Part shown: one piece after another, positions 51,732 to 63,345 of the stretch
Layout of the letters: every line of letters begins with the position of its first letter
Position numbering within the stretch: position 1 is the stretch's first letter
Assembly: GCA_028279215.1 (NCBI GenBank)
Contig: JANQOF010000048.1
Location: forward strand, 6,533-70,532
DNA: 64,000 bases
Direction of reading: 5' to 3'
Source: Pirellulales bacterium
Lineage (GTDB): Bacteria; Planctomycetota; Planctomycetia; Pirellulales; Lacipirellulaceae
Made by a program: the position numbers and the translations under genes
The notes under the pieces: model-generated
What the model was told of the DNA's origin: nothing
The model's input: only the letters and a program-made list of their open reading frames with translations
Database searches by the model: none

Positions 51732-52055
51732 GTGGCTGCATCGCAGGAAATCATCCGCATTCGAATGGAGGCGTACGATCACTCGGTGCTCGACCAGAGC
51801 GCCGCGGAAATCGTGGATACCGCCAAGCGGACCAACTCCGTTGTTCATGGGCCAATTCCCCTGCCGACGCGGATCGAGCGGTACACCGTGCTGCGTGGTC
51901 CCCATGTCGACAAGAAATCGCGACAGCAGTTCGAAATCCGCACTCACAAGCGGCTAATCGATATCGTCCAAGCCACGGCCAAGACCATCGAAGCGCTCAA
52001 CAAGCTGAGCCTTCCGGCCGGCGTGGACATCAAGATCAAGGCGACTAGTGGATAA
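51732..52055 (+). CDS. rpsJ: 30S ribosomal protein S10
   Basis: [35 protein letters not shown]; GTG start. Confidence 0.97.
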
Positions 52056-52224
52056 ACGTTTGGTTTAGTCGAGTTTTAAGAAGCATGGTCGGAAGTTGAG
52101 TCGGGTAAGCCGGGGACTGCCCAGCTAATCGTGAGTTTCGGCAGTTCGCGTGTCTCCCAGCTCGCAAGACGCACATGACCCTATAAGGCGCTTGGCCGCG
52201 TAACAAACGCCCAAGCGAAACGAG

Positions 52225-52926
52225 ATGTCAGCCCCTACACCCGCTGTGGGCATCCTTGGTCGTAAGATCGGGATGACGCAGGTTTATGACGAATCTGGCA
52301 AGGTGGTGCCAGTAACCGTAGTCGAGGCCGGGCCCTGCGATGTGTTGCAGGTACGCACTGCCGACAACGACGGGTACGAAGCTGTGCAGATCGGGTATCT
52401 CGATAAGCCCCGCCGGCTCGCAAGCCGGAGTGAGCGAGGTCATGTAGCGAAACTCGACAGCAAACGATCCAAAGCCCGTGCCGCAGCGGGCGTCGAGCCC
52501 GCCGCCAAGGCTGGCTGCGAACCCAAGCGATTCATCCGCGAAATCCGCGGCACCGCAGGCGATCTTGCCCCCGGCTCGCAAGTCACGGTCGAAGCATTTG
52601 CCGATGTCAAAGCGGTCGACATCGTGGCCACCAGCAAGGGCCGCGGTTTCTCGGGGGCCATGAAGCGGCACAATTTCGCCGGGCAGCGTGCGACTCACGG
52701 TGTGAAGAAGTGTCACCGTCACCTCGGCGGCACCGGTTGTAGCGCCTACCCCAGCCGCCTATTCAAGGGGGTCCGCATGCCAGGTCAGTACGGGAACGCC
52801 CGCACGACCGTCCGCAACCAGAAGATTGTGCGAGTGGATGCCGAGAATAACCTGCTTCTGGTGTGCGGCGGCATTCCCGGCCCCAACGGCGGATTCGTGG
52901 TTGTTAAGCAAACCAACAAAGTGTAG
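52225..52926 (+). CDS. rplC: 50S ribosomal protein L3
   Basis: GILGRKIGMTQ, DGYEAVQIG, SKGRGFSG.MKRHNF. Confidence 0.97.
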   Translation: MSAPTPAVGILGRKIGMTQVYDESGKVVPVTVVEAGPCDVLQVRTADNDGYEAVQIGYLDKPRRLASRSERGHVAKLDSKRSKARAAAGVEPAAKAGCEPKRFIREIRGTAGDLAPGSQVTVEAFADVKAVDIVATSKGRGFSGAMKRHNFAGQRATHGVKKCHRHLGGTGCSAYPSRLFKGVRMPGQYGNARTTVRNQKIVRVDAENNLLLVCGGIPGPNGGFVVVKQTNKV

Positions 52927-52930
52927 TGGA

Positions 52931-52979
52931 GAGGTCGGGGGTCAGAGGCCAAAACGGCTGACGGCCAACGCCGAGAGCG
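52931..52979. repeat. Hybrid heptamer-unit element at the rplC-rplD junction
   Basis: gaggtcg-ggggtca-gaggcca followed by gctgacggcc..gccgagagc. Confidence 0.45.
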
Positions 52980-53642
52980 ATGCCCAAACTTACGATTCAC
53001 GATCGCAAAGGACAGAAGGTCGGCACTTACAATGTCGAGGCGAGCGACTTTGCGCCTGAAATCAATAAGCAGTTGCTGCACGACGCGGTGGTGATGTACC
53101 AGGCCAATCGCCGTCAGGGCAGCCACAAGACGAAAACCCGCGGCGAAGTGAAAGCTTCGACCAAGAAGCTGTATCGCCAAAAGGGCACGGGCAACGCGCG
53201 TGCCGGGCATCGTCGCAGTGGCGTGCGTCGAGGTGGCGGGCACATTTTTGCCCTGCGTCCCCGCGACTACTCGTACTCGATGCCCCGCAAAGCGTTGCAG
53301 CTAGCCACGCGGATGGCGATTGCCTCGAAGGTGGAAGACAACGAATTGGTCGTAATCGACGAACTTGCGTTCGAATCGCCGAAGACACGCGACATGGTGT
53401 CGATTATCAAACACCTCGACATCGAGGGCGATTCGCTGTTGGTGGCCACTAAAGAATACGACGTCAACGTCTATAAGAGTGGTCGCAACATCGACCGAGT
53501 TTCGGTGTCGCCTGCTGCGGAGCTTAATGCACTCAATGTGCTGTCGGCCCGCCGGTTGCTGGTCACGAAAGCAGCGCTCGACGTGCTGCGTGAGAAGGCC
53601 GCGGCCAACGGGGCCGCGAAGGCCAGCGAAACAGCAGAATAA
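52980..53642 (+). CDS. rplD: 50S ribosomal protein L4
   Basis: RQGSHKTKTRGEV, RQKGTGNARAG, RGGGHIF. Confidence 0.97.
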   Translation: MPKLTIHDRKGQKVGTYNVEASDFAPEINKQLLHDAVVMYQANRRQGSHKTKTRGEVKASTKKLYRQKGTGNARAGHRRSGVRRGGGHIFALRPRDYSYSMPRKALQLATRMAIASKVEDNELVVIDELAFESPKTRDMVSIIKHLDIEGDSLLVATKEYDVNVYKSGRNIDRVSVSPAAELNALNVLSARRLLVTKAALDVLREKAAANGAAKASETAE

Positions 53643-53672
53643 CGGGTTGGCAGAAGAATAAGGTCGTCAGTC

Positions 53673-53987
53673 ATGCCTCGCCATATTCCACAAAAAACAA
53701 CGCTCGAACTCGAACCGCACCAGATCCTCCTGAGGCCTCTGGTAACCGAGAAAGGCATGCGCCAAGCGAACGAGCACAACGCTTACGCCTTCGAAATCAA
53801 CAAGCTGGCCAACAAGTCCGACGTCCGTCGGGCGGTCGAGCAGTTGTTTGACGTGAAGGTCGAGAAAGTGCACATCCAAAACCGCAAGGGAAAGCCCCGC
53901 CGCACCCGGCAGCACTTCGGCTTCACTAGCGATTGGAAGAAAGCCATCGTCACACTGAATAAAGAACACACCATCGAATTCTTCTAG
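53673..53987 (+). CDS. rplW: 50S ribosomal protein L23
   Basis: [36 protein letters not shown]. Confidence 0.96.
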
Positions 53988-54013
53988 CAGTAAGGATTCA
54001 GGACCCCTCGATT

Positions 54014-54877
54014 ATGGGCATCCGAAAATACAAGCCGATTACGCCTGGCCGCCGCGGCGCGACGGTTAGCGACTTCAAGGACCTGACGCCTGGCGCCAAG
54101 CCCGAGAAGAGTTTGTTGCGCGCGATCACCAAGACCGGCGGCCGCAATAACCAAGGCGTCACCACCGCGCGATTCCGTGGCGGCGGCCACAAGCGGCGTT
54201 ATCGATTGATTGACTTCCGCCGCAACAAAGACGGCGTGCCGGCCAAGGTCGATTCGATTCAGTACGACCCCAACCGATCGGCCCGCATCGCCCTGCTGCA
54301 TTACGCCGACGGCGAGAAGCGATATATCATCGCCCCCGCCGGCTTAGTGGCTGGCGATCAGGTGATGAGCGGCGCCGAGTGCGAACCCAAGGTTGGCAAC
54401 TGCCTGCCGCTATCGAAGATTCCACTGGGCACCGTAGTGCACAACATCGAACTCCGGGCTGGTCGCGGCGGCGTGTTGTGCCGCAGTGCAGGCACCAGCG
54501 CCACGTTGATGGCACGCGAGGCCGACTGGGCCCAGATATCGCTCCCAAGCGGCGAAATCCGGCGTATTCCGTCGGCCTGCCGAGCAACTATCGGATCGAC
54601 CAGTAACGGCGACCACAGCGCGATTGTGCTGGGCAAGGCGGGCCGCAAGCGTTGGCTTGGGCGTCGCCCGCACGTCCGCGGTACCGCGATGAACCCAATC
54701 GACCACCCGCACGGTGGTGGCGAAGGTCGCACCAAGGGCGGCCGACATCCCGTGAGCCCCACCGGCAAGAGTGCCAAGGGCGGGATGACACGCCAGCGCC
54801 GCAAACCATCCAACGCCGCCATCGTCCGCCGCCGCAAGAGCAAGCGATATGGTGTGCAGAAGTTAGTTAAAAAGTAA
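54014..54877 (+). CDS. rplB: 50S ribosomal protein L2
   Basis: [40 protein letters not shown]. Confidence 0.98.
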
Positions 54878-54881
54878 CAGC

Positions 54882-54959
54882 AGCGATTGGCCAGCAGCTA
54901 TCAGCTATCAGCTGTTGGCCAAGAAGAAGCAAACAGCCGAAAGCTGATAGCCGAGAGCC
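54882..54959. repeat. Heptamer-unit inverted repeat (rplB-rpsS)
   Basis: agcgatt-ggccagc-agctatc-agctatc-agctgtt ... aacagcc-gaaagct-gatagcc-gagagcc. Confidence 0.8.
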
Positions 54960-54965
54960 AAACAA

Positions 54966-55235
54966 ATGTCCCGTTCACTCAAAAAAGGCCCTTACGTCGA
55001 TCCAAAGCTGTACGGCAAAGTCGACAAGCTGAACGACTCGGGCCGCAAAGAACCGATCACCACCTGGGCGCGGGCCTGCACGATCATCCCTGAGTTTGTC
55101 GGCCACACGTTTATGGTTCACAACGGCAAGATGCACATGAAAGTGTTCGTGACCGAAGACATGGTCGGCCACAAGCTGGGCGAGTTCGCCCCCACCCGAA
55201 ACTTCCGAGGGCACAGCGGCAAGGGCAAGAAGTAG
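54966..55235 (+). CDS. rpsS: 30S ribosomal protein S19
   Basis: [29 protein letters not shown]. Confidence 0.97.
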
Positions 55236-55239
55236 AAAG

Positions 55240-55310
55240 GGCTGTCAGCTATCGGCTATTGGTTATCCGCCAAGTACATGCCGACGGCCAGCAGCCAACA
55301 GCCGAGAGCT
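55240..55310. repeat. Heptamer-unit inverted repeat (rpsS-rplV)
   Basis: ggctgtc-agctatc-ggctatt-ggttatc ... gacggcc-agcagcc-aacagcc-gagagct. Confidence 0.8.
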
Positions 55311-55316
55311 TCGAAC

Positions 55317-55643
55317 ATGGCATACAAAGCAGTACACAAACACGCTCGCATCAGCGCCACGAAAGTGCGGCCGCTGGCGAATTTGATTCGTGGCCAAGAG
55401 GTCGACGAGGCGCTGGCGATTCTCAAGTATCAGCCCCATCGTGGCGCACGGATGCTTGAAAAGGTGCTCAAGAGTGCTCGCAGCAACGCCGAAGACCGCG
55501 GCGCCCCCAACTTGGGCGGCCTACGGGTCGTCGAAGCACGAGTCGATGGCGGCCCCATGTTCAAACGCCTGCGCCCCCGCGCCCGAGGCATGGCCCATGT
55601 CATCAAGAAGCGATTTAGTCACATCATCGTGTCCGTTGAATAG
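55317..55643 (+). CDS. rplV: 50S ribosomal protein L22
   Basis: ARISATKVR..ANLIRG, VDGGPMFKRLRPRARG; start ATG 55317. Confidence 0.96.
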   Translation: MAYKAVHKHARISATKVRPLANLIRGQEVDEALAILKYQPHRGARMLEKVLKSARSNAEDRGAPNLGGLRVVEARVDGGPMFKRLRPRARGMAHVIKKRFSHIIVSVE

Positions 55644-55692
55644 AGGTTGCCGCCAGGCTTCCTGACCCCTGAACCCTGACCCCACATTCACC

Positions 55693-56388
55693 ATGGGCCA
55701 AAAAGTCAATCCAATTGGTTTCCGCACCGGCATCATGCTCGATTGGAAGAGCCGCTGGTACGCGTCGAAGAAAGACTTCGCGGAACTGTTGTTGGAAGAC
55801 AAGAAGATTCGCGACTATGTCACCAAGAAGTACAAGTTTGCCGGTATTCCCAAGGTGGAAATCGAGCGGACCCGCGACGAGGTGAAAGTGGTGCTGCATG
55901 CGGCACGGCCGGGCGTGATCATCGGTCGTAAGGGCCAGCAGGTCGAGCAGCTGCAAGACGAGTTGCAGAACTTGATCGGACGACGGATCAACATCAAGAT
56001 CGAAGAAATCAATCGCCCTGAGTTGCAGGCGCACCTAGTGGCCGAAGACATCGCCGAGCAATTGGCCAAGCGGGCCAGTTTCCGCCGCACCATGAAGCGG
56101 GCGATGGAGCAAACCATGGAAGCGGGTGCCAAAGGCATCAAGATTGAACTGGCAGGACGATTGGGCGGTGCCGAAATGGCCCGTCGCGAAAAGCAGATTT
56201 CCGGATCGATTCCGCTGAGCACGCTCCGCGCGAACATCGATTACGGTTTTGTGGAGGCTAAGACCGCCCAAGGGCATATTGGCGTCCAAGTTTGGATTAA
56301 CCAAGGCATGTTTGAGGACGACACCGATGGCGCTGATGCCCAAGAGGGTCAAACATCGAAAAAGCCAAAGAGGTCGTATAAAAGGTAA
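55693..56388 (+). CDS. rpsC: 30S ribosomal protein S3
   Basis: [45 protein letters not shown]. Confidence 0.97.
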
Positions 56389-56740
56389 CGCGACCCGCGG
56401 GAATACCGTGGTGTTTGGCGACTTTGGCCTACAGGCAATCGAAGGTGGCTGGGTTAGCGCGGCTACGATCGAAGCCGGTCGTATCGCCGCCCAACAGTAC
56501 ATCCGTGGTGAAGGTCGGCTTTACATCCGTGTCTTCCCACACAAGTCGATTACATCGATCCCGCTCGAAACTCGGATGGGTAAGGGTAAAGGCGAGCCAG
56601 ACTATTGGGCCGCCACCGTAAAGCCCGGCACCGTGCTGTACGAGGTAAGCGGGGTCAGCGAGCAACAAGCAAAACTCACCTTCGCCCGCTTGGCCCACAA
56701 AATGCCAGTCCGCGTGCGAATGATTAAACGACAAGCTTAA
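56327..56740 (+). CDS. rplP: 50S ribosomal protein L16
   Basis: [18 protein letters not shown]; GAGGA RBS lies inside rpsC, so the genes overlap by up to 62 nt. Confidence 0.96.
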
Positions 56741-56743
56741 GAA

Positions 56744-56822
56744 GGCATTCGGCTGTCAGCGATCAGCTGTCGGCAAAAATGCTTGGTGAAACGACAGCAG
56801 ATATAGCTAAGAGCCGATAGCC
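56744..56822. repeat. Heptamer-unit inverted repeat (rplP-rpmC)
   Basis: ggcattc-ggctgtc-agcgatc-agctgtc ... tatagct-aagagcc-gatagcc, abutting the rpmC ATG. Confidence 0.8.
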
Positions 56823-57050
56823 ATGACCGACGCCAAAGAATTGCGTGAGATGAGCGACGAGCAGTTGGCTCTGACGCTCAAGGACGCGGCCGAGCATTTA
56901 TTCCGGCTTCGAATCCAGTCGCAAACCGAGCGGCTCGACGCGCCGACTGAATTGCGAGTGAATCGCCGGCTCATTGCCCGCGTGAAGACGATCCAAACCG
57001 AACGAGCGATTGCAAAAGCCCAAGAGGAAGCACCCGCCGAGAAGAAGTAA
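56823..57050 (+). CDS. rpmC: 50S ribosomal protein L29
   Basis: AKELREMS..EHLFRLRIQ..RRLIARVKT. Confidence 0.93.
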   Translation: MTDAKELREMSDEQLALTLKDAAEHLFRLRIQSQTERLDAPTELRVNRRLIARVKTIQTERAIAKAQEEAPAEKK

Positions 57051-57116
57051 ACTCCAGCCGCTGTCGACGCTTCGGTTTCCTGCCCTCCTGAATCCTGACC
57101 CCCGATCCCTTTTTCA

Positions 57117-57425
57117 ATGCCCAAAAAACAAGTCATCGGTGTTGTGACCAGCGACCGCATGAACAAGTCGCGCCGCGTGGAAGTATCGCGGATGGAGCGA
57201 CACCCGAAGTACGGCAAGTACATCAAGCGTCGCACGGTGTGCCATGTGCACGACGAAAACAACGAGTCGGGCATGGGTGATACCGTGGAGATCATCGAGT
57301 GCCCGCCAAAGTCAAAGACCAAGCGGTGGGACTTGGTGCGAGTGGTGGCCAAGAGCCAAGAGGTCGACCTGGCGGCACTACGAGCGGCTCAGAAGGCCGA
57401 ACACGAAGCGGAAGCAAACAACTGA
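57117..57425 (+). CDS. rpsQ: 30S ribosomal protein S17
   Basis: [34 protein letters not shown]. Confidence 0.96.
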
Positions 57426-57480
57426 GCGATTTCGTCGGCCCGATGCGACCGTGTGGCGGATTATGTAGAGCGAGTTGATC

Positions 57481-57849
57481 ATGATTCAGATGCAAACCAA
57501 GCTAAACGTGGCCGACAACACCGGTGCCAAGGAAGTCATGTGCATCAAGGTGCTGGGTGGTAGCCGCCGCCGCTTTGCGGGCCTGGGCGACATCATTGTC
57601 TGCAGCGTTAAGAGCGTAATCCCTGGCAGCGACGTCAAGAAAAAGTCGGTCGTGCGAGCGGTGATCGTGCGAGTCAAATCGCCTACTCGCCGCCCCGATG
57701 GCAGCTACGTTCGGTTCGACTCCAACGCGGTGGTTCTGGTTGATAAGGACGGGAACCCCCGCGGCACACGTATTTTCGGTGCCGTCGCCCGCGAATTGCG
57801 CGACCGCCGATTTATGAGAATTGTAAGCCTCGCCAACGAGGTGGTTTAG
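57481..57849 (+). CDS. rplN: 50S ribosomal protein L14
   Basis: [37 protein letters not shown]. Confidence 0.97.
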
Positions 57850-57854
57850 AGAAA

Positions 57855-57928
57855 TGGTGAGTGCTGGATGGCGATTGGCAGGTGAGCCGGTCGCCGTGCG
57901 GCCGATAGCCACCGGCCATTAGCCACGA
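57855..57928. repeat. Heptamer-unit inverted repeat, TGGC/GCCA variant (rplN-rplX)
   Basis: tggtgag-tgctgga-tggcgat-tggcagg ... gccgata-gccaccg-gccatta-gccacga. Confidence 0.6.
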
Positions 57929-57935
57929 CAAACCC

Positions 57936-58286
57936 ATGTTGATTAAAGAAGGTGACAGCGTCGTCGTAGTTGCTGGTAATGACCGCAGCGACGAGGTGCG
58001 CTCCGTGGTTCAGGTCGACCGCGCCAAAGGCAAGGTGCTGGTCGAGGGCGTGAACCTGGTGTGGAAACACGTTCGCCGCAGCCAGAAGTACCCGCAAGGC
58101 GGCCGTTTGAGCAAAGAGATGCCTGTGGATATCTCCAACCTCAAATACTACTGCACGAGTTGTTCTTCTGGCGTCCGGTTGGGCGTGCGTTACCTCGACG
58201 ACGGCAGCAAGGAACGTTATTGCAAGAAATGTGGCTCGAGCGCCGGCAAGATCGCTCCGGCCAAGGCCGCCTACGCGAATAAATAA
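57936..58286 (+). CDS. rplX: 50S ribosomal protein L24
   Basis: IKEGDSVVVVAG, VLVEGVN, KEMPVDISN. Confidence 0.95.
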   Translation: MLIKEGDSVVVVAGNDRSDEVRSVVQVDRAKGKVLVEGVNLVWKHVRRSQKYPQGGRLSKEMPVDISNLKYYCTSCSSGVRLGVRYLDDGSKERYCKKCGSSAGKIAPAKAAYANK

Positions 58287-58334
58287 CCAAGACAAACGCA
58301 AAACGCCGGGAGCTGACGTACCCGGACCACGATC

Positions 58335-58907
58335 ATGGCCACAGCAACTGCACCGCGACTTGCGGAAACCTACCAAAAGGAAATCCGGCCGGCGCTCGCC
58401 GAGAGCCTCGACCGCAAGAATCCGCATGCTCTGCCGAAGATCGAGAAGATCGTGGTGAGCATGGGTGTGGGTAGCGCAATTAGCGACAAGAAAAATTTGG
58501 AAGACGCCCTCAGCGCGCTGACGGAAATTACTGGCCAAAAGCCAATGGTTTGCAAGGCTCGCAAGAGCGTGGCGAACTTCAAATTGCGGCAAGGGAATCC
58601 GATCGGCGCGAAGGTCACGCTTCGTGGTGCTCGGATGTACGAGTTCCTCGACCGCTTGATTTCGCTCGTGTTGCCTCGGGTCCGCGACTTCCGCGGCTTG
58701 AGCGACAAAGCGTTTGACGGGAATGGCAACTACAGCCTCGGGCTCAGCGAAATCCTCGTGTTCCCCGAGCTCAACCCCGACAAATACACCCGCTCGCAGG
58801 GTATGAACATCGCGATTTGTTTTTCGGGCCACTCCGACGACGATTCGCGCGAATTGCTCAAGGCGTTTGGATTCCCGTTCAAACGCCCCGACGACGAAGA
58901 AGGCTGA
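58335..58907 (+). CDS. rplE: 50S ribosomal protein L5
   Basis: PKIEKIVVSMGVG, ITGQKP, GAKVTLRG, LPRVRDFRG. Confidence 0.97.
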   Translation: MATATAPRLAETYQKEIRPALAESLDRKNPHALPKIEKIVVSMGVGSAISDKKNLEDALSALTEITGQKPMVCKARKSVANFKLRQGNPIGAKVTLRGARMYEFLDRLISLVLPRVRDFRGLSDKAFDGNGNYSLGLSEILVFPELNPDKYTRSQGMNIAICFSGHSDDDSRELLKAFGFPFKRPDDEEG

Positions 58908-58923
58908 TAACAGATACCTTTTC

Positions 58924-58994
58924 AACGCCCAGCCGAAGGTGCCGGCTGACGCGAAAGCAAGAACGAGCTGAGCCGGCGCCTTCGGCTTGGCGTT
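58924..58994. repeat. REP-like long hairpin (rplE-rpsN)
   Basis: aacgcccagccgaaggtgccggct matches the reverse complement of agccggcgccttcggcttggcgtt at 22/24. Confidence 0.75.
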
Positions 58995-59010
58995 AAACGA
59001 TGTGGTCCCC

Positions 59011-59196
59011 GTGGCAAGTAAATCAAAAATCGCCAAAGCCAACCGCGAGCCGAAGTTCAGCACGCGACGCGAGAACCGCTGCCAAATCTGCGGTCGCCCT
59101 CGTGCTGTGTATCGCAAGTTTGGGATTTGCCGGATCTGCTTCCGGAACCTAGCCGACAAAGGCCAGATTCCCGGCGTCCGCAAATCAAGTTGGTAA
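59011..59196 (+). CDS. rpsN: 30S ribosomal protein S14, zinc-binding (type Z)
   Basis: [35 protein letters not shown]; GTG start at 59011. Confidence 0.96.
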
Positions 59197-59199
59197 TTT

Positions 59200-59275
59200 G
59201 GCTCTCGGCTGTCGGCTAATGGCCGTCAGCCCGAGAAGAGTATTGCTGATAGCTGACAGCCGATTGCTGAAAGCC
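59200..59275. repeat. Heptamer-unit inverted repeat (rpsN-rpsH)
   Basis: ggctctc-ggctgtc-ggctaat-ggccgtc ... gatagct-gacagcc-gattgct-gaaagcc. Confidence 0.8.
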
Positions 59276-59300
59276 ATTACACCCAGGAGTTTCTGGCGCG

Positions 59301-59702
59301 ATGATGACCGACCCGATCGCCGACATGCTCACTCGCATTCGCAATGCCGTTCGCATTGAACGGCCGACGGTGACGCTACCGGTGTCGAAAGTGAAACGCG
59401 GTTTGGCCGAAGTGTTGAAGCGCGAAGGTTACATTTGGGACTGGCACGAGGAAGAGACCGAGGGCCTGCCTCAAAAGCAACTGCACATCGACTTGAAGTA
59501 CGGGCCCAACGGTGAACGGGTGATCCGCCACATCAAGCGGATTAGTAAGCCTGGTTGCCGAGTATACGCCCGAGCAACAACGCTTAAGCCAGTACTCAAC
59601 GGATTGGGCATCTCGGTAATCAGCACCAGCCGAGGCGTGATCAGCGACCGCGAAGCCCGTCAGCGAAAGCTGGGCGGCGAAGTATTGTGTGAGCTTTGGT
59701 AA
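59301..59702 (+). CDS. rpsH: 30S ribosomal protein S8
   Basis: MTDPIADMLTRIRNA, ISKPGCRVY, GISVISTSRGV. Confidence 0.97.
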   Translation: MMTDPIADMLTRIRNAVRIERPTVTLPVSKVKRGLAEVLKREGYIWDWHEEETEGLPQKQLHIDLKYGPNGERVIRHIKRISKPGCRVYARATTLKPVLNGLGISVISTSRGVISDREARQRKLGGEVLCELW

Positions 59703-59706
59703 GAGT

Positions 59707-59762
59707 GGCTATTGGCCTTCGGCTCTTAGCTGGCGGCCAGAGAATGCAGATAGCTGAGAGCA
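59707..59762. repeat. Heptamer-unit inverted repeat (rpsH-rplF)
   Basis: ggctatt-ggccttc-ggctctt-agctggc ... gatagct-gagagca. Confidence 0.7.
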
Positions 59763-59769
59763 AGTAACA

Positions 59770-60312
59770 ATGTCCCGAATTGGCAAGAAACCGGTCGAAA
59801 TTCCCAGCGGCGCAAAGGTCGACATTTCCGGTCGCACCATCACCGTCGAAGGGAAGCTTGGCAAGCTCACGTACGAGCATCGACCCGAGATCAAGGTCGA
59901 GTTGGACGAAGACGGCAAGAACGTCGTTTGCTCGCGTGAAACCGACGTGCGCGAAGTTCGGGCCTATCACGGACTGACGCGGTCGCTGATCGCCAACATG
60001 CTTCAGGGCGTCACCAACGGTTACGAAAAGCGGCTCGAGATTCAGGGTGTTGGTTACCTAGGCGCGATATCGGGCGACACGCTTCAGCTACGCGTAGGTT
60101 TCGCCAATGAAGTGCACAAGAAGATTCCCAAGGGGCTCGACGTCACTTGCCCCGACCAAACCCATATCGTGGTTAAAGGTTGCGACAAGCAGCAGGTTGG
60201 CCAGTTTGCCGCCGAAGTACGTGCTGTCCGCAAACCAGAGCCGTATAAAGGCAAAGGCATCCGCTACGAAGGCGAACAAGTCCGCCGCAAGGCAGGTAAG
60301 ACGGGTGCTTAG
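59770..60312 (+). CDS. rplF: 50S ribosomal protein L6
   Basis: MSRIGKKPV, HGLTRSLIANM, RKPEPYKGKGIRY. Confidence 0.97.
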   Translation: MSRIGKKPVEIPSGAKVDISGRTITVEGKLGKLTYEHRPEIKVELDEDGKNVVCSRETDVREVRAYHGLTRSLIANMLQGVTNGYEKRLEIQGVGYLGAISGDTLQLRVGFANEVHKKIPKGLDVTCPDQTHIVVKGCDKQQVGQFAAEVRAVRKPEPYKGKGIRYEGEQVRRKAGKTGA

Positions 60313-60380
60313 TGCATGTAATGGTTAGAAGTTCGTGACTGACTCACAACTTACGACTAACAAGTAGCGATTGTCGAATC

Positions 60381-60749
60381 ATGGAACATAGTAAAGCCAT
60401 TTTTAAGCAGCGGAATCGTCGGCGGTTTCGTGTCCGCAAGCGAATTAAGGGCACGGCCGATCGCCCGCGATTGAGCGTCACGCGAAGCCATAAGCACATG
60501 TCGGCTCAGCTGATCGACGACATCGCCGGTAAGACGCTCGTCAGTGCGTCGACCCAAGACAAAGAGCTTTCGGGCTCAGTGAAGTATGGCGGCAACGTCG
60601 ATGCTGCCGCAGCCGTTGGCAAGGCGATCGCTGATCGGGCCAAAGCGGCTGGCATCGAGCTGGCTTGCTTCGATCGCGGATCGTACAAGTACCATGGGCG
60701 CGTGGCGGCGTTGGCCGACGCGGCCCGCGAAGGTGGATTACAGTTTTAG
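60381..60749 (+). CDS. rplR: 50S ribosomal protein L18
   Basis: [30 protein letters not shown]. Confidence 0.97.
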
Positions 60750-60829
60750 ACCAATCGCAGTTTTAGACCAAACAATGTGAGCCGCAGGCGTTAGCCTCGG
60801 ATTGAACTAACCCGCAAGGGCAACGAAGC

Positions 60830-61330
60830 GTGGCAAAGCAACAAGCACAAGAAGAACGCCAACGCGGCGAACTCAACGAACACGTGGTGAAGATCAAGCG
60901 TTGTGCCGCCGTGGTAAAAGGTGGCCGGCGGTTCAGCTTCGCCGCGATGGTGGTTGTGGGCGATGGCAACGGCAAGGTGGGCTGGGGCTACGGCAAGGCC
61001 AATGAAGTGCCGCCGAGCGTCGAGAAGGCTCGCAAAGAGGGAATGCGCAACATGACAGTCATTCCCATGGACGAGGCGACTATCCCGCATCAGGTGATCG
61101 GCGAGTTTGGCGCGGCCCGCGTGGTGTTGGTGCCTGCTTCGCCTGGTACTGGTGTGATCGCCGGTGCGGCCGTTCGGGCGGTGTGCGAAGCTGCCGGCAT
61201 TCACGACATCCTCACCAAGAGCTTCGGTTCGAACAATCCGGTGTCGCTCGTCAAAGCGACCATTGAAGGACTCAAACAACTGCGTCCACGCATGGAAGTC
61301 GAGCGGCTTCGAGGAGTGACCCTGACATGA
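60830..61330 (+). CDS. rpsE: 30S ribosomal protein S5
   Basis: [37 protein letters not shown]. Confidence 0.97.
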
Positions 61331-61818
61331 TTCTCGACGACATTCATCGCGGCATTCATAAGGGCCGCAAACGCAAACGTTTGGGTCGCGGCCCGGGTTC
61401 CGGCCACGGCAAGACGTCCGGTCGTGGTCACAAGGGCCAAGGTTCGCGCGCCGGCAGCTCGCGGAAGCCAACCTTCCAAGGTGGCGCCATGCCGCTTGTA
61501 CGGCGTGTCCCCAAGCGAGGTTTCAATAACCGTTGGGCCTTGAAAGTGATGGTGGTGAACGTCGGTGAGATCGAAAAAGCTTTCGAAGCGGGCGACGAAG
61601 TCACCCTCGAAGCGATGGCCGCCAAAAATCTTGCCAAAGGTCGCTACGACGTACTCAAGGTGCTCGGCGACGGCGAACTGACCAAAAAGGTCAAGATCAG
61701 CGCTCACCGGTTTAGCAAGAGTGCCCTCGAGAAGATCGAGAAGGCCGGTGCCGAAGCAATTACGCTGCCCGGTAAGACTCCAGTGGCCCAGCGAGCGAGT
61801 GCGACCAAGAACAAGTGA
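61327..61818 (+). CDS. rplO: 50S ribosomal protein L15
   Basis: [44 protein letters not shown]. Confidence 0.97.
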
Positions 61819-61995
61819 ACCAATAATCGGCGAGCCGGATCCGTTAGCGCCGCAAGCGTGCCCCGCATGGCACCAGACGCGCCGACTCTTCCGGCTCACG
61901 CCGTTTTAGCTGGTCTTGCGGTTCGGTGTGTATTCTCCGATAGTTAAGGTTTCTCCAATCCACCCGCGGCACCACCGGACAACCGAGTTCCTGCC

Positions 61996-63345
61996 ATGTG
62001 GAAAAAGCTTCGCACAATTTGGTCCATTCCCGAGCTGCGGCGGAAGATCCTGTTCACCATCGGGATGCTCGCAGTTTACCGTTTGGGCTTTCAGATCCGG
62101 CTGCCATTCATTGATCCAGACAAACTGGCCTCTGTGGGTGGCTCCGATGGCACGCTCGGGCAGTTGCTGGCAACGGTATCCACGTTCTCTGGCGCGGGGC
62201 TCGACCAAATCACCATCTTTGGCTTGGGCATCATGCCCTACATTTCGGCGTCGATCATCTTCCAACTGCTCGGTAGCGTGATTCCCTCACTCGAGCGGTT
62301 GCAGAAGGAGGGCGAAACCGGGCGCAAGAAGATCAACGAGTACACACGCTACGCCACGGTCGGCCTTTGCCTGTTTCAAAGTTGGTTCTTCCTTACTTCG
62401 TTCGTCGAAGGTCGCGACTACATTTACGACCAATTCCTAGTCGACGGACACCTGCCGATGAGTTGGCGAATCGTGGCCGTGATGACCATGACCGCTGGCA
62501 CCGTGTTCTTGATGTGGATTGGCGAACAGATCGATGAGTACGGCATTGGCAACGGCATCAGCTTGATCATCATGGCCGGCATCCTGGCCAGCATGCCGGG
62601 TGCTGGCTGGAACCTGTTGCAGCAATTCAAACCCGAGTTGGGCGCCACCAACGGCATTGGCCCCGAAAAGCTGTTGCTGCTGGCTGCGATGTTTGTCGCA
62701 GTGGTTGTGGGCGTGGTGTTCATCACCTTGGGCCAACGTCGCATCCCTATGCAAAGCGCGAAGCACATTCGGGGCCGCCGCGCGATGGGTGGTCAGAAGT
62801 CGTACCTGCCGCTCAAAGTCAATCAAGCGGGTGTGATGCCAATTATCTTCGCGTCGAGCCTGCTGATTTTCCCGATGATCATCTTGCAGCAAATTGGCTC
62901 ACTGCTGACAAGCGACGGCTGGCTCAAGAGTGCGGTGACCTGGTGCAGCGAAGCGCTGCAGCACGATACCTTCACGTACAATGTCAGCTACTTGGTGTTG
63001 ATTTACTTCTTCTGCTTCTTCTGGACAGCCATTACGTTCAATCCCAAGGACATGGCCGATAACCTGAAAAACTTTGGGTCGTTTATCCCCGGCTATCGCC
63101 CGGGCAAGCGAACCGCAGACTACCTTGAAAAGGTCATGGTACGCATCACCTATGTTGGTGCAGGGTTCCTGGCCGTGATTGCCATTATTCCCACCATCAT
63201 TTCAGCCGCGCTGAATGTCGATTACACGATCGCCATGTTCTATGGTGGCACGAGCCTGCTGATTGCCGTGAGTGTGGGTTTCGATCTGGTGCAGAAGATC
63301 GATAGCCATTTGGTGATGCGGAATTACAAGGGATTGCTCGAGTAA
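61996..63345 (+). CDS. secY: Preprotein translocase subunit SecY
   Basis: IFGLGIMPYISASIIFQLL, GIGNGISLII, PLKVNQAGVMPIIFASS, FIPGYRPGKRT, GGTSLLI.V.V. Confidence 0.98.
   Translation: MWKKLRTIWSIPELRRKILFTIGMLAVYRLGFQIRLPFIDPDKLASVGGSDGTLGQLLATVSTFSGAGLDQITIFGLGIMPYISASIIFQLLGSVIPSLERLQKEGETGRKKINEYTRYATVGLCLFQSWFFLTSFVEGRDYIYDQFLVDGHLPMSWRIVAVMTMTAGTVFLMWIGEQIDEYGIGNGISLIIMAGILASMPGAGWNLLQQFKPELGATNGIGPEKLLLLAAMFVAVVVGVVFITLGQRRIPMQSAKHIRGRRAMGGQKSYLPLKVNQAGVMPIIFASSLLIFPMIILQQIGSLLTSDGWLKSAVTWCSEALQHDTFTYNVSYLVLIYFFCFFWTAITFNPKDMADNLKNFGSFIPGYRPGKRTADYLEKVMVRITYVGAGFLAVIAIIPTIISAALNVDYTIAMFYGGTSLLIAVSVGFDLVQKIDSHLVMRNYKGLLE

Follow-up and report, generated by a model that had tools for sequence, protein, structure and literature searches.

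The S10-spc ribosomal-protein operon in the window analysed here, a 64-kb stretch of a planctomycete draft genome of 4.56 Mb and 58% G+C (contig C49:6533-70532), contains five intercistronic hairpins whose arms are arrays of degenerate 7-nucleotide (nt) words in inverted orientation. These spacer elements are probably members, lacking an open reading frame (ORF), of a family of palindromic insertion cassettes that is built on inverted arms of 7-nt words and whose full form encloses a gene of Pfam family PF05635. Elements of the same architecture recur in a common sequence dialect at unlinked loci and around a PF05635 gene of the same genome, and operon junctions are found in three occupancy states among relatives; the elements have persisted vertically for a long time, with decay to single arms and loss.

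The operon occupies positions 51732-63345 of the window on the plus strand and runs from rpsJ through rplO to secY, with gene limits checked by translation. By the L2 protein, the nearest named relative of the genome is a Botrimarina metagenome-assembled genome (87% identity), followed by other Pirellulales planctomycetes. All spacers of the operon were also measured in 39 relatives, of which 6 belong to the genus, another 17 to the family and the remaining 16 to the order; the genome under study is denoted G000 and the relatives are numbered from G001 upward.

Hairpins of the operon and PF05635 cassettes

Exact tandem heptamers are rare in the genome, so a degenerate position-weight scan was needed; it used the patterns GCTNTCR for left and YGANAGC for right arrays, with at least three in-phase units. 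In the window its only matches are five left and five right arrays, all ten of them paired and all lying in five spacers (rplB-rpsS, rpsS-rplV, rplP-rpmC, rpsN-rpsH and rpsH-rplF), the ones that a first-pass annotation of this DNA had described as heptamer-built inverted repeats. The genome as a whole has 31 left and 28 right arrays; null genomes give similar numbers, so that single weak arrays carry no meaning, and since single three-unit arrays are at background level, only paired arrays or arrays of at least four units were counted as elements. Left-right pairs within 60 nt number six in the genome and none in four null genomes (the reversed genome and each of three second-order Markov genomes), and the comparison with a null that the annotation had called for thus bears out its five elements. 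Five of the six closely paired GCT hairpins found by the genome scan are the S10-spc operon spacers.

Each element has three to five GCTNTCR units, a loop of 5-28 nt and three or four YGANAGC units, that is, two pairable inverted arrays of at least three tandem 7-nt units. The rplB-rpsS hairpin (54883-54958; like all operon features below, on the plus strand) has five GCTNTCR-type units, a 13-nt loop and four YGANAGC units, folds at -35.8 kcal/mol (z = -6.2; all fold z-scores were computed against dinucleotide shuffles) and terminates in ...GATAGCCGAGAGCC, 7 nt upstream of the rpsS ATG. Its spacer is 81-90 nt long in all seven genomes of the genus and bears period-7 arrays in six of them, the array of G006 being degenerate. 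The rpsS-rplV hairpin (55241-55309) has 4 + 4 units and a 13-nt loop (z = -2.6), and that of rplP-rpmC (56745-56821), with 4 + 3 units around a 28-nt loop (z = -5.1), ends 1 nt before the rpmC ATG. The rpsN-rpsH hairpin (59201-59274; 4 + 4 units, 18-nt loop) folds at -43.3 kcal/mol (z = -3.9) and is followed by 26 nt, AGGAG included, before the rpsH ATG. The weakest of the five is the rpsH-rplF hairpin (59708-59761; 4 + 3 units, 5-nt loop, z = -2.0); at this junction, 14 of 20 family-level relatives have heptamer arrays as well.

The arrays start 4-5 nt after the upstream stop codon and end 7, 7, 1, 26 and 8 nt before the next start codon, in the order given above; the distance of 0-7 nt to the ATG previously proposed fails for rpsN-rpsH. 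The terminal GAGAGC unit, which had been placed where a Shine-Dalgarno (SD) sequence would be, is real, but copies of the element in RNase P RNA and in a tRNA spacer (see below) close with ...GCCGAGAGCC; GAGAGC is therefore the terminus of the element, not specifically an SD, and its reading as a general SD site was rejected. SD sites, as read from the sequence, are weak or absent all along the operon. A 9-mer from the element end is too common in coding DNA to inform. Rfam 15 covariance models gave no match to the spacers at E <= 1 except a chance microRNA (E = 0.35, 24.8 bits against a gathering score of 63).

Periodicity of 7 is a feature of the whole genome. At one threshold, 72 period-7 arrays are found against 3-11 for periods 4, 5, 8, 10, 11 and 13, and at a laxer threshold 167 against 20-35, so that period 7 is about 7-20 times commoner than the other periods. 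The arrays fall into approximately ten word classes, among them CCCTGAC, GGGGAAA, AATCATC, GGTGTTA, GCCACTG and GCTATCR. On contig C81, a pair of GCT-class arrays 420 nt apart (arms GCTGTGG/GCTATAG) encloses an ORF of 119 amino acids that matches PF05635, the 23S rRNA intervening-sequence protein, at 7.6e-37; the left arm begins 2 nt past the stop codon of the preceding gene, and the right arm comes to within 5 nt of the next ATG. The word class of the operon hairpins thus has an ORF-bearing relative in the same genome. Each of the genome's six PF05635 genes is flanked by inverted heptamer arrays of a word of its own, so that the link of heptamer arrays with genes for four-helix-bundle proteins suggested in the first pass is correct here; in five of the six cassettes the right arm is 0-5 nt upstream of the next gene's ATG. 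The heptamer-flanked state is also found in most of 55 further PF05635 loci from 14 relatives. The PF05635 protein is an Avd-like four-helix bundle that is not known to have a nuclease fold.

Among the relatives, the same junction varies from an overlap or 2-25 nt (empty) up to 60-150 nt with heptamer arms. The rpsS-rplV spacer is short (5-8 nt) in G020 and G008, but most other genomes have 80-146 nt and heptamer arms there; the rpsE-rplO ATGA overlap, otherwise universal, is broken up in two of 20 family-level relatives by inserts of 107 and 126 nt that contain heptamers. Empty, hairpin-only and ORF-bearing states are all seen within the order at rplP-rpmC. G027 (3 nt) and G032 (8 nt) have this junction empty, and in the window (82 nt) it contains only the hairpin; in the order-level relative G033 it measures 517 nt and contains a PF05635 ORF (9.5e-12) between (GAATGAC)n and (GTCATTC)n arms. 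G001, which retains only a 23-nt piece of the right arm, illustrates decay. The first-pass suggestion of a non-autonomous element or empty cassette, for which a comparison of junction states had been proposed, is thus supported by three junction states, by a PF05635 gene at rplP-rpmC in a relative and by the flanking of all six PF05635 genes.

Every one of the seven genomes of the genus has long spacers at four junctions (rplB-rpsS, rpsS-rplV, rpsN-rpsH and rpsH-rplF), mostly with clear period-7 arrays, and the part of the element best conserved among congeners is the right arm adjoining the start codon. Most operon elements are orthologous and retained within the genus; they are therefore old residents, not recent arrivals.

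In 72 heptamer hairpins from 21 genomes, the stem starts a median of 3 nt after the stop codon (0-5 nt in 61 of the 72) and ends a median of 9.5 nt before the next start; for long non-heptamer spacers the corresponding distances are 8 nt and 16 nt. In some relatives the first unit supplies the stop codon itself (TAGCNNT arrays). The proximity to stop codons noted in the first pass is therefore real, but the targeting read into it is not needed: empty junctions are 2-25 nt long, so that any insertion sparing both genes and the start region must abut the stop, and copies also lie at sites without any stop codon, namely helix P12 of RNase P RNA and a tRNA spacer.

Stable-RNA copies and genome dialects

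The RNase P RNA of this genome is of class A and is encoded at C14:156005-156459 on the minus strand (Rfam, 285 bits). A 43-nt unaligned insert at the tip of its P12 helix is a GCT hairpin, lying within the stretch GGGGCUGUCGGUCGUCGGCUGAAGAAAAUGGAUAGCCGAGAGCCAACAGUCC. The 16-mer GATAGCCGAGAGCCAA occurs exactly twice in the genome, in this P12 helix and in the rplB-rpsS element. Among the 39 relatives with a match, P12 measures 40-60 nt in 21, the congeners G003 and G006 among them, and 15 have a P12 lengthened by heptamer hairpins; in G018, G019 and G022 it is extended without period-7 arms. The P12 word belongs to the GCT class in G000, G001, G002, G004, G005, G007, G008, G010, G014 and G021, and is TTAGGNN in G024, GGGGCTA in G012, GCTAGAN in G015 and GTGAGTG in G031. 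In G015, a PF05635 gene (C6:102461-103311) begins 58 nt downstream of the gene for the RNase P RNA whose P12 bears the GCTAGAN hairpin.

Another GCT hairpin fills the spacer between tRNA-Gly and tRNA-Thr upstream of tuf, and the gap between tuf and tRNA-Trp is filled by a hairpin of the GCCACTG word (C41:73738-73808). The order at this locus (C41:71800-74400) is tRNA-Tyr, tRNA-Gly, GCT hairpin, tRNA-Thr, tuf, GCCACTG-word hairpin, tRNA-Trp, so that one tRNA-tuf transcription unit holds two hairpins of different words. Taken together, the sites of the GCT subfamily (the five operon junctions, the tRNA-Gly/tRNA-Thr spacer and the P12 tip) are likely to be places that tolerate an extra compact stem.

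A heptamer intervening sequence (IVS) in 23S rRNA was sought and rejected: none of the 23S rRNA genes of six relatives carries one, and the present assembly contains no 23S gene. The G021 23S gene (G021:C19:139500-143400) has a 702-nt insertion at GGGTAAG^TTCCGACC, a classic region of group I intron insertion, and a 32-nt extra hairpin near position 270, both without heptamer arms.

The words used by the elements form dialects that differ between genomes, for example GCTAAC in G021, GGCTGTCGGCTATC in G007, GCTGAGAGC/GCTCTCA in G005 and TTAGGNN in G024. The number of shared 8-10-mers is higher between P12 inserts and operon spacers of one genome than between those of different genomes (14 genomes; the observed value was reached in none of 200,000 permutations, p < 5e-6), and PF05635 flanks are likewise closer to the operon spacers of their own genome (9 genomes, p = 0.003-0.008). 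A cassette at an orthologous locus in G012, G020 and G021, which represent three genera, has three different arm dialects; in G012 and G021 the cassette dialect matches the dispersed hairpins of the same genome, while G020 has no heptamer operon spacers and a short P12 for comparison. This match points to exchange between cassette and ORF-less copies, which might take the form of re-seeding, gene conversion or a common binding partner.

Arms fit best within a hairpin: a left arm pairs with its own right arm at -35.0 kcal/mol, with other arms of the same genome at -30.9, with those of other genomes at -26.1 and with other copies overall at -26.4. Of the hairpins, 51 have the G-rich arm on the 5' side and the C-rich arm on the 3' side, and one has the reverse order. 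Since a palindrome reads alike on both strands, this polarity belongs to the element itself and does not reflect its orientation.

Variant spacers and alternative explanations

Further spacers of the operon contain elements of other words or less complete form. The variant hairpin annotated at rplN-rplX (57863-57927) is real; it uses units of the GGCGATT / GCCATTA, GCCGATA type and folds at -38.8 kcal/mol (z = -3.3). The junction measures 86 nt here, 2-3 nt in four family members and a 1-nt overlap in most order-level genomes. At rplC-rplD (52931-52979), the proposed GAGGTCA element is a decayed GAGGTCR array with a ...GCCGAGAGC right end, which alone is not significant (z = -1.6); clear (GAGGTCR)3-4 arrays are present at this junction in G004, G006 and G002, with a full hairpin in G002. 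The half-arrays reported as CTGACCC are genuine period-7 arrays, one-armed and unfolded. That of rplV-rpsC (55661-55683) is a CCTGACC array of 3.3 copies (Tandem Repeats Finder) directly upstream of the rpsC start, shows no folding and has the word that flanks a PF05635 gene on contig C65; that of rpmC-rpsQ (57080-57112) is a degenerate CCTGANC array upstream of the rpsQ start, with no fold (z = +0.7) and 15 of 21 period-7 matches in its best 28-nt window (14 for the spacer extended by one base). Membership is doubtful for rplF-rplR (60324-60361), where the annotated element amounts to a weak inverted repeat (z = -0.7) without GCT-type units.

Several other spacers and repeats are of different kinds. 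The rpsJ-rplC spacer (52056-52224; 105-311 nt in relatives) has a non-heptamer core, ATG.CGGAAG...GGGTAAGCC...GTGTCTCCC, that is conserved across the family. Nothing in Rfam matches this spacer at E <= 1, and it may represent a so far undescribed leader of ribosomal-protein genes, located between S10 and L3. The rplE-rpsN spacer (58908-59011) forms a very stable, nearly perfect non-heptamer hairpin (-52.8 kcal/mol), another type of intercistronic stem, and the rplO-secY spacer (61819-61995) has a motif, GGTCTTGCAGTTAGTYGTTTATTCRYCGATAGTTA, upstream of secY that is kept among genomes of the genus. Outside the operon, a long open frame whose N-terminus is of the P-loop NTPase type (GPSGSGKT) contains a GCT-class hairpin (C54:9790-9871), situated between motifs of the LSNGEK and hhhhDE types; the frame stays open across it and Pfam gives weak AAA/ABC matches only, so that it looks like an in-frame insertion into a coding gene. 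A repeat of about 300 nt, with the layout GTTTTTCCTTGAAACTAGGCCACG ... TTCGCTGCGCGG + GCT-type heptamers ... GGGGCAAAAC, occurs four times (C5:12700-13050, C5:71700-72060, C14:57840-58200 and, on the minus strand, C10:15850-16210); it is an unrelated dispersed family containing a one-armed GCT array.

If the operon elements are ORF-less cassettes, their tolerance may be pictured as follows. The element would be transcribed with its host RNA and would form an imperfect stem of some 20-30 predicted pairs. In stable RNAs, the stem could persist as an extended helix or be excised by RNase III. Within the operon, the stem would be tolerated since it brings the stop and the next start back together, to within about a dozen nucleotides. 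A ribosome at the stop would cover the first turn of the stem, and one terminating 0-5 nt from the stem base would open it, exposing the C/A-rich 3' arm as the leader of the next cistron. Translational coupling, on which the autoregulation of ribosomal-protein operons relies, would thereby survive the insertion.

A number of observations weigh against the insertion-cassette reading. The operon gives no sign of recent mobility, most of its elements being orthologous and old within the genus; no two copies in the genome are near-identical over their full length, and no target-site duplication was found at rpsE-rplO or P12. The signs of movement are indirect, namely the 16-mer common to P12 and rplB-rpsS and the concordance of dialects. 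The genome has no reverse transcriptase (RVT_1) gene, and an origin of the arrays by reverse transcription, by analogy with Avd and diversity-generating retroelements, was rejected. Its four Y1-transposase genes (PF01797 matches) have no period-7 arrays within 900 nt, and mobilisation of the kind attributed to transposases of repetitive extragenic palindromes was rejected for lack of such flanks. Sense and antisense strands of the clearest 48 hairpins fold at -37.0 and -37.6 kcal/mol, which leaves the sense strand without an advantage; nor is it enriched in G-U pairs, and the sequence thus bears no sign of selection on mRNA structure.

The evidence on the association of hairpins with PF05635 genes points both ways. 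PF05635 clades in a maximum-likelihood tree track word class (10 changes against 19.3 for shuffled labels, with none of 200 shuffles as low), but largely through co-inheritance of whole cassettes: those of the GCT clade occupy orthologous loci, one common to G000, G002, G004, G006 and G010 and the other to G012, G020 and G021. The association is therefore no proof of specificity between protein and word, and the tree was set aside as independent support. Co-occurrence speaks for a link. PF05635 copy number correlates with the number of heptamer spacers (Spearman rho 0.41, p = 0.009, uncorrected for phylogeny), although this correlation vanishes within the family, and of the seven genomes that lack PF05635, five (G025, G027, G028, G032 and G037, all 97-99% complete) have no heptamer operon spacers, G013 has one and G017 (66% complete) three. 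On the other side, G001 and G003, assembled in two contigs and one contig, keep GCT hairpins without a GCT-clade PF05635 gene, and G020, G023 and G038, with 5-7 PF05635 genes, have no heptamer operon spacers.

An extension of the cassette reading, which we advance tentatively and regard as rather doubtful, is that PF05635 proteins and heptamer hairpins are one self-propagating system, in which every lineage of the protein would recognise a 7-nt word of its own, with the resident cassette as the master copy that re-seeds or homogenises the ORF-less hairpins. It is favoured by the dialect drift at the orthologous cassette, by the dialect match in G012 and G021 and by the 51:1 polarity. The targets of such a system might, just as tentatively, be RNAs transcribed at a high level, namely the mRNAs of ribosomal proteins, the precursors of tRNAs, RNase P RNA and, outside this phylum, 23S rRNA.

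Among the explanations that dispense with insertion, the least unlikely is that the hairpins are purpose-built intercistronic RNA devices, selected for translational coupling or as RNase III sites that set stoichiometry, the likeness to PF05635 arms being secondary. We think this improbable, although several observations speak for it: stems lie closer to the stop than in non-heptamer spacers (medians of 3 and 8 nt), the right arm beside the start codon is the best conserved part, long spacers are kept at four junctions throughout the genus, the operon has five of the genome's six closely paired GCT hairpins, and SD sites are weak or absent throughout it. However, the proximity to the stop follows from short ancestral spacers, and in other family members these junctions have just 2-25 nt and no hairpin. 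The same class, including the common 16-mer, occurs in P12 and in a tRNA spacer, where there is no translation; the arms pair imperfectly only, and neither a sense-strand fold advantage nor a G-U excess is seen.

Independent heptanucleotide microsatellites, in which arrays arise by local replication slippage with no element identity and no relation to PF05635, would account for the degenerate units, for the differing copy numbers at orthologous sites and for the one-armed arrays at rplV-rpsC and rpmC-rpsQ; over-representation of heptamer repeats in bacteria, with polymerase slippage as an explanation, has been discussed (PMC4692102). Slippage cannot, however, yield complementary inverted arms with a fixed G-first polarity, and it leaves unexplained the best fit of own arms, the 16-mer common to unlinked loci, the genome dialect common to P12, operon spacers and PF05635 flanks, and the PF05635 ORF between arms at an operon junction. 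We regard this origin as very improbable. A role of these GC-rich intergenic hairpins as transcription signals (intrinsic terminators, attenuators or internal promoters) has next to no likelihood and was rejected, as no stem is followed by a T-run, terminator-like sites are at shuffle level (16 against 14.2 +/- 4.1), promoter-like sites number 1 against 2.9 in shuffles, the one weak plus-strand terminator-like site in an element (55240-55257) lies inside a single arm with none matching a full stem, and Rfam offers nothing at E <= 1 beyond the chance microRNA.

Relation to known repeat families

Several kinds of element resemble the insertion cassettes in part. The IVSs of 23S rRNA in Coxiella, Leptospira and Salmonella occur with or without an S23p/PF05635 ORF, are excised by RNase III and are viewed as selfish or neutral (Warrier et al. 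2016; PMC4990558). As in those IVSs, the elements described here are extra stem-loops bordered by terminal inverted repeats, at sites where the host RNA tolerates helix extension, with ORF-bearing and ORF-less forms, the same Pfam family and a sporadic distribution among relatives. They differ in where they sit (stop/start junctions in mRNA, a tRNA spacer and the P12 helix of RNase P RNA) and in their arms, tandem 7-nt arrays not described in the IVS literature searched. The insertion sites of 23S IVSs are helix tips (helices 9, 25 and 45), and none of the heptamer elements was found at a 23S rRNA helix tip. By analogy, the elements appear to behave like IVSs, yet they are not 23S IVSs.

Paired convergent heptameric repeats, GGGAATC in Xanthomonas and GGGGA(C/T)T in Nostoc, have been read as simple repeats that form G-quadruplexes (Rehm et al. 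2015; PMC4692102). They too have a period of 7, are mostly intergenic and often consist of two convergent arrays able to form a stem-loop; they lie nearest the end of the upstream ORF, between co-directional genes, and keep their position among related species. Convergent intergenic period-7 pairs near the upstream ORF end are just what the present operon contains. In contrast, no link with PF05635, stable RNAs or empty and filled sites was reported in that work (PMC4692102), and the GCT word is unable to form G-quadruplexes.

The TAACTGA intergenic heptamer direct repeats of Beggiatoaceae, cyanobacteria and Bacteroidetes, for which a translational role was proposed (MacGregor 2015; PMC4679880), similarly form arrays immediately before start codons, in many cases where no SD is present, and in some they overlap the preceding stop. 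Those are direct repeats of one word across phyla with almost no inverted partners, whereas here there are many words, each with a partner gene.

The RNase P RNA of Thermodesulfatator indicus has a P12 expansion that is removed from the transcript in vivo, and the RNA remains active although it is in pieces (PMC9945441). The likeness is one of position, an extra stem at the P12 tip that is absent from relatives; the T. indicus segment is described as containing an A/U-rich part.

Repetitive extragenic palindromes (REP) and bacterial interspersed mosaic elements (BIME) are short, dispersed, species-specific intergenic palindromes in operons, and the REP-associated tyrosine transposase (RAYT) is a master gene flanked by inverted repeat copies. 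The heptamer elements are likewise dispersed palindromes between operon genes, species-specific and with a putative master gene that has inverted copies on either side. Unlike REP/RAYT, the flanked gene encodes a four-helix-bundle protein and the arms are tandem arrays rather than a single palindrome; the four PF01797 matches, which represent IS200/IS605-like Y1 transposases, are not flanked by the repeats.

What is already known separately is thus the existence of 23S IVSs, paired heptamer repeats, TAACTGA repeats and one excised P12 expansion. The literature searched describes neither a link between heptamer arrays and PF05635 nor such hairpins in ribosomal-protein operons, tRNA spacers or RNase P RNA. 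To this the present analysis adds a single word class that occupies four different kinds of site within a genome, all three states of a junction among members of one order, the series of P12 helices in RNase P RNA, dialects specific to each genome and a fixed polarity.

One hairpin design is thus found in four settings: with a gene, gene-less between ribosomal-protein genes, between tRNAs and in RNase P RNA. If the self-propagating system considered above were real, 23S IVSs, P12 expansions and the cyanobacterial short tandemly repeated repetitive (STRR)-type and Xanthomonas-type repeats would be one class of element with a protein partner. The insertion-cassette reading itself would provide a joint frame for intergenic heptanucleotide repeats, the PF05635 family and sporadic expansion segments of stable RNAs, all of them unexplained for decades, and in annotation the long spacers of planctomycete ribosomal-protein operons and the long P12 helices would be treated as insertions and not as conserved regulatory leaders.

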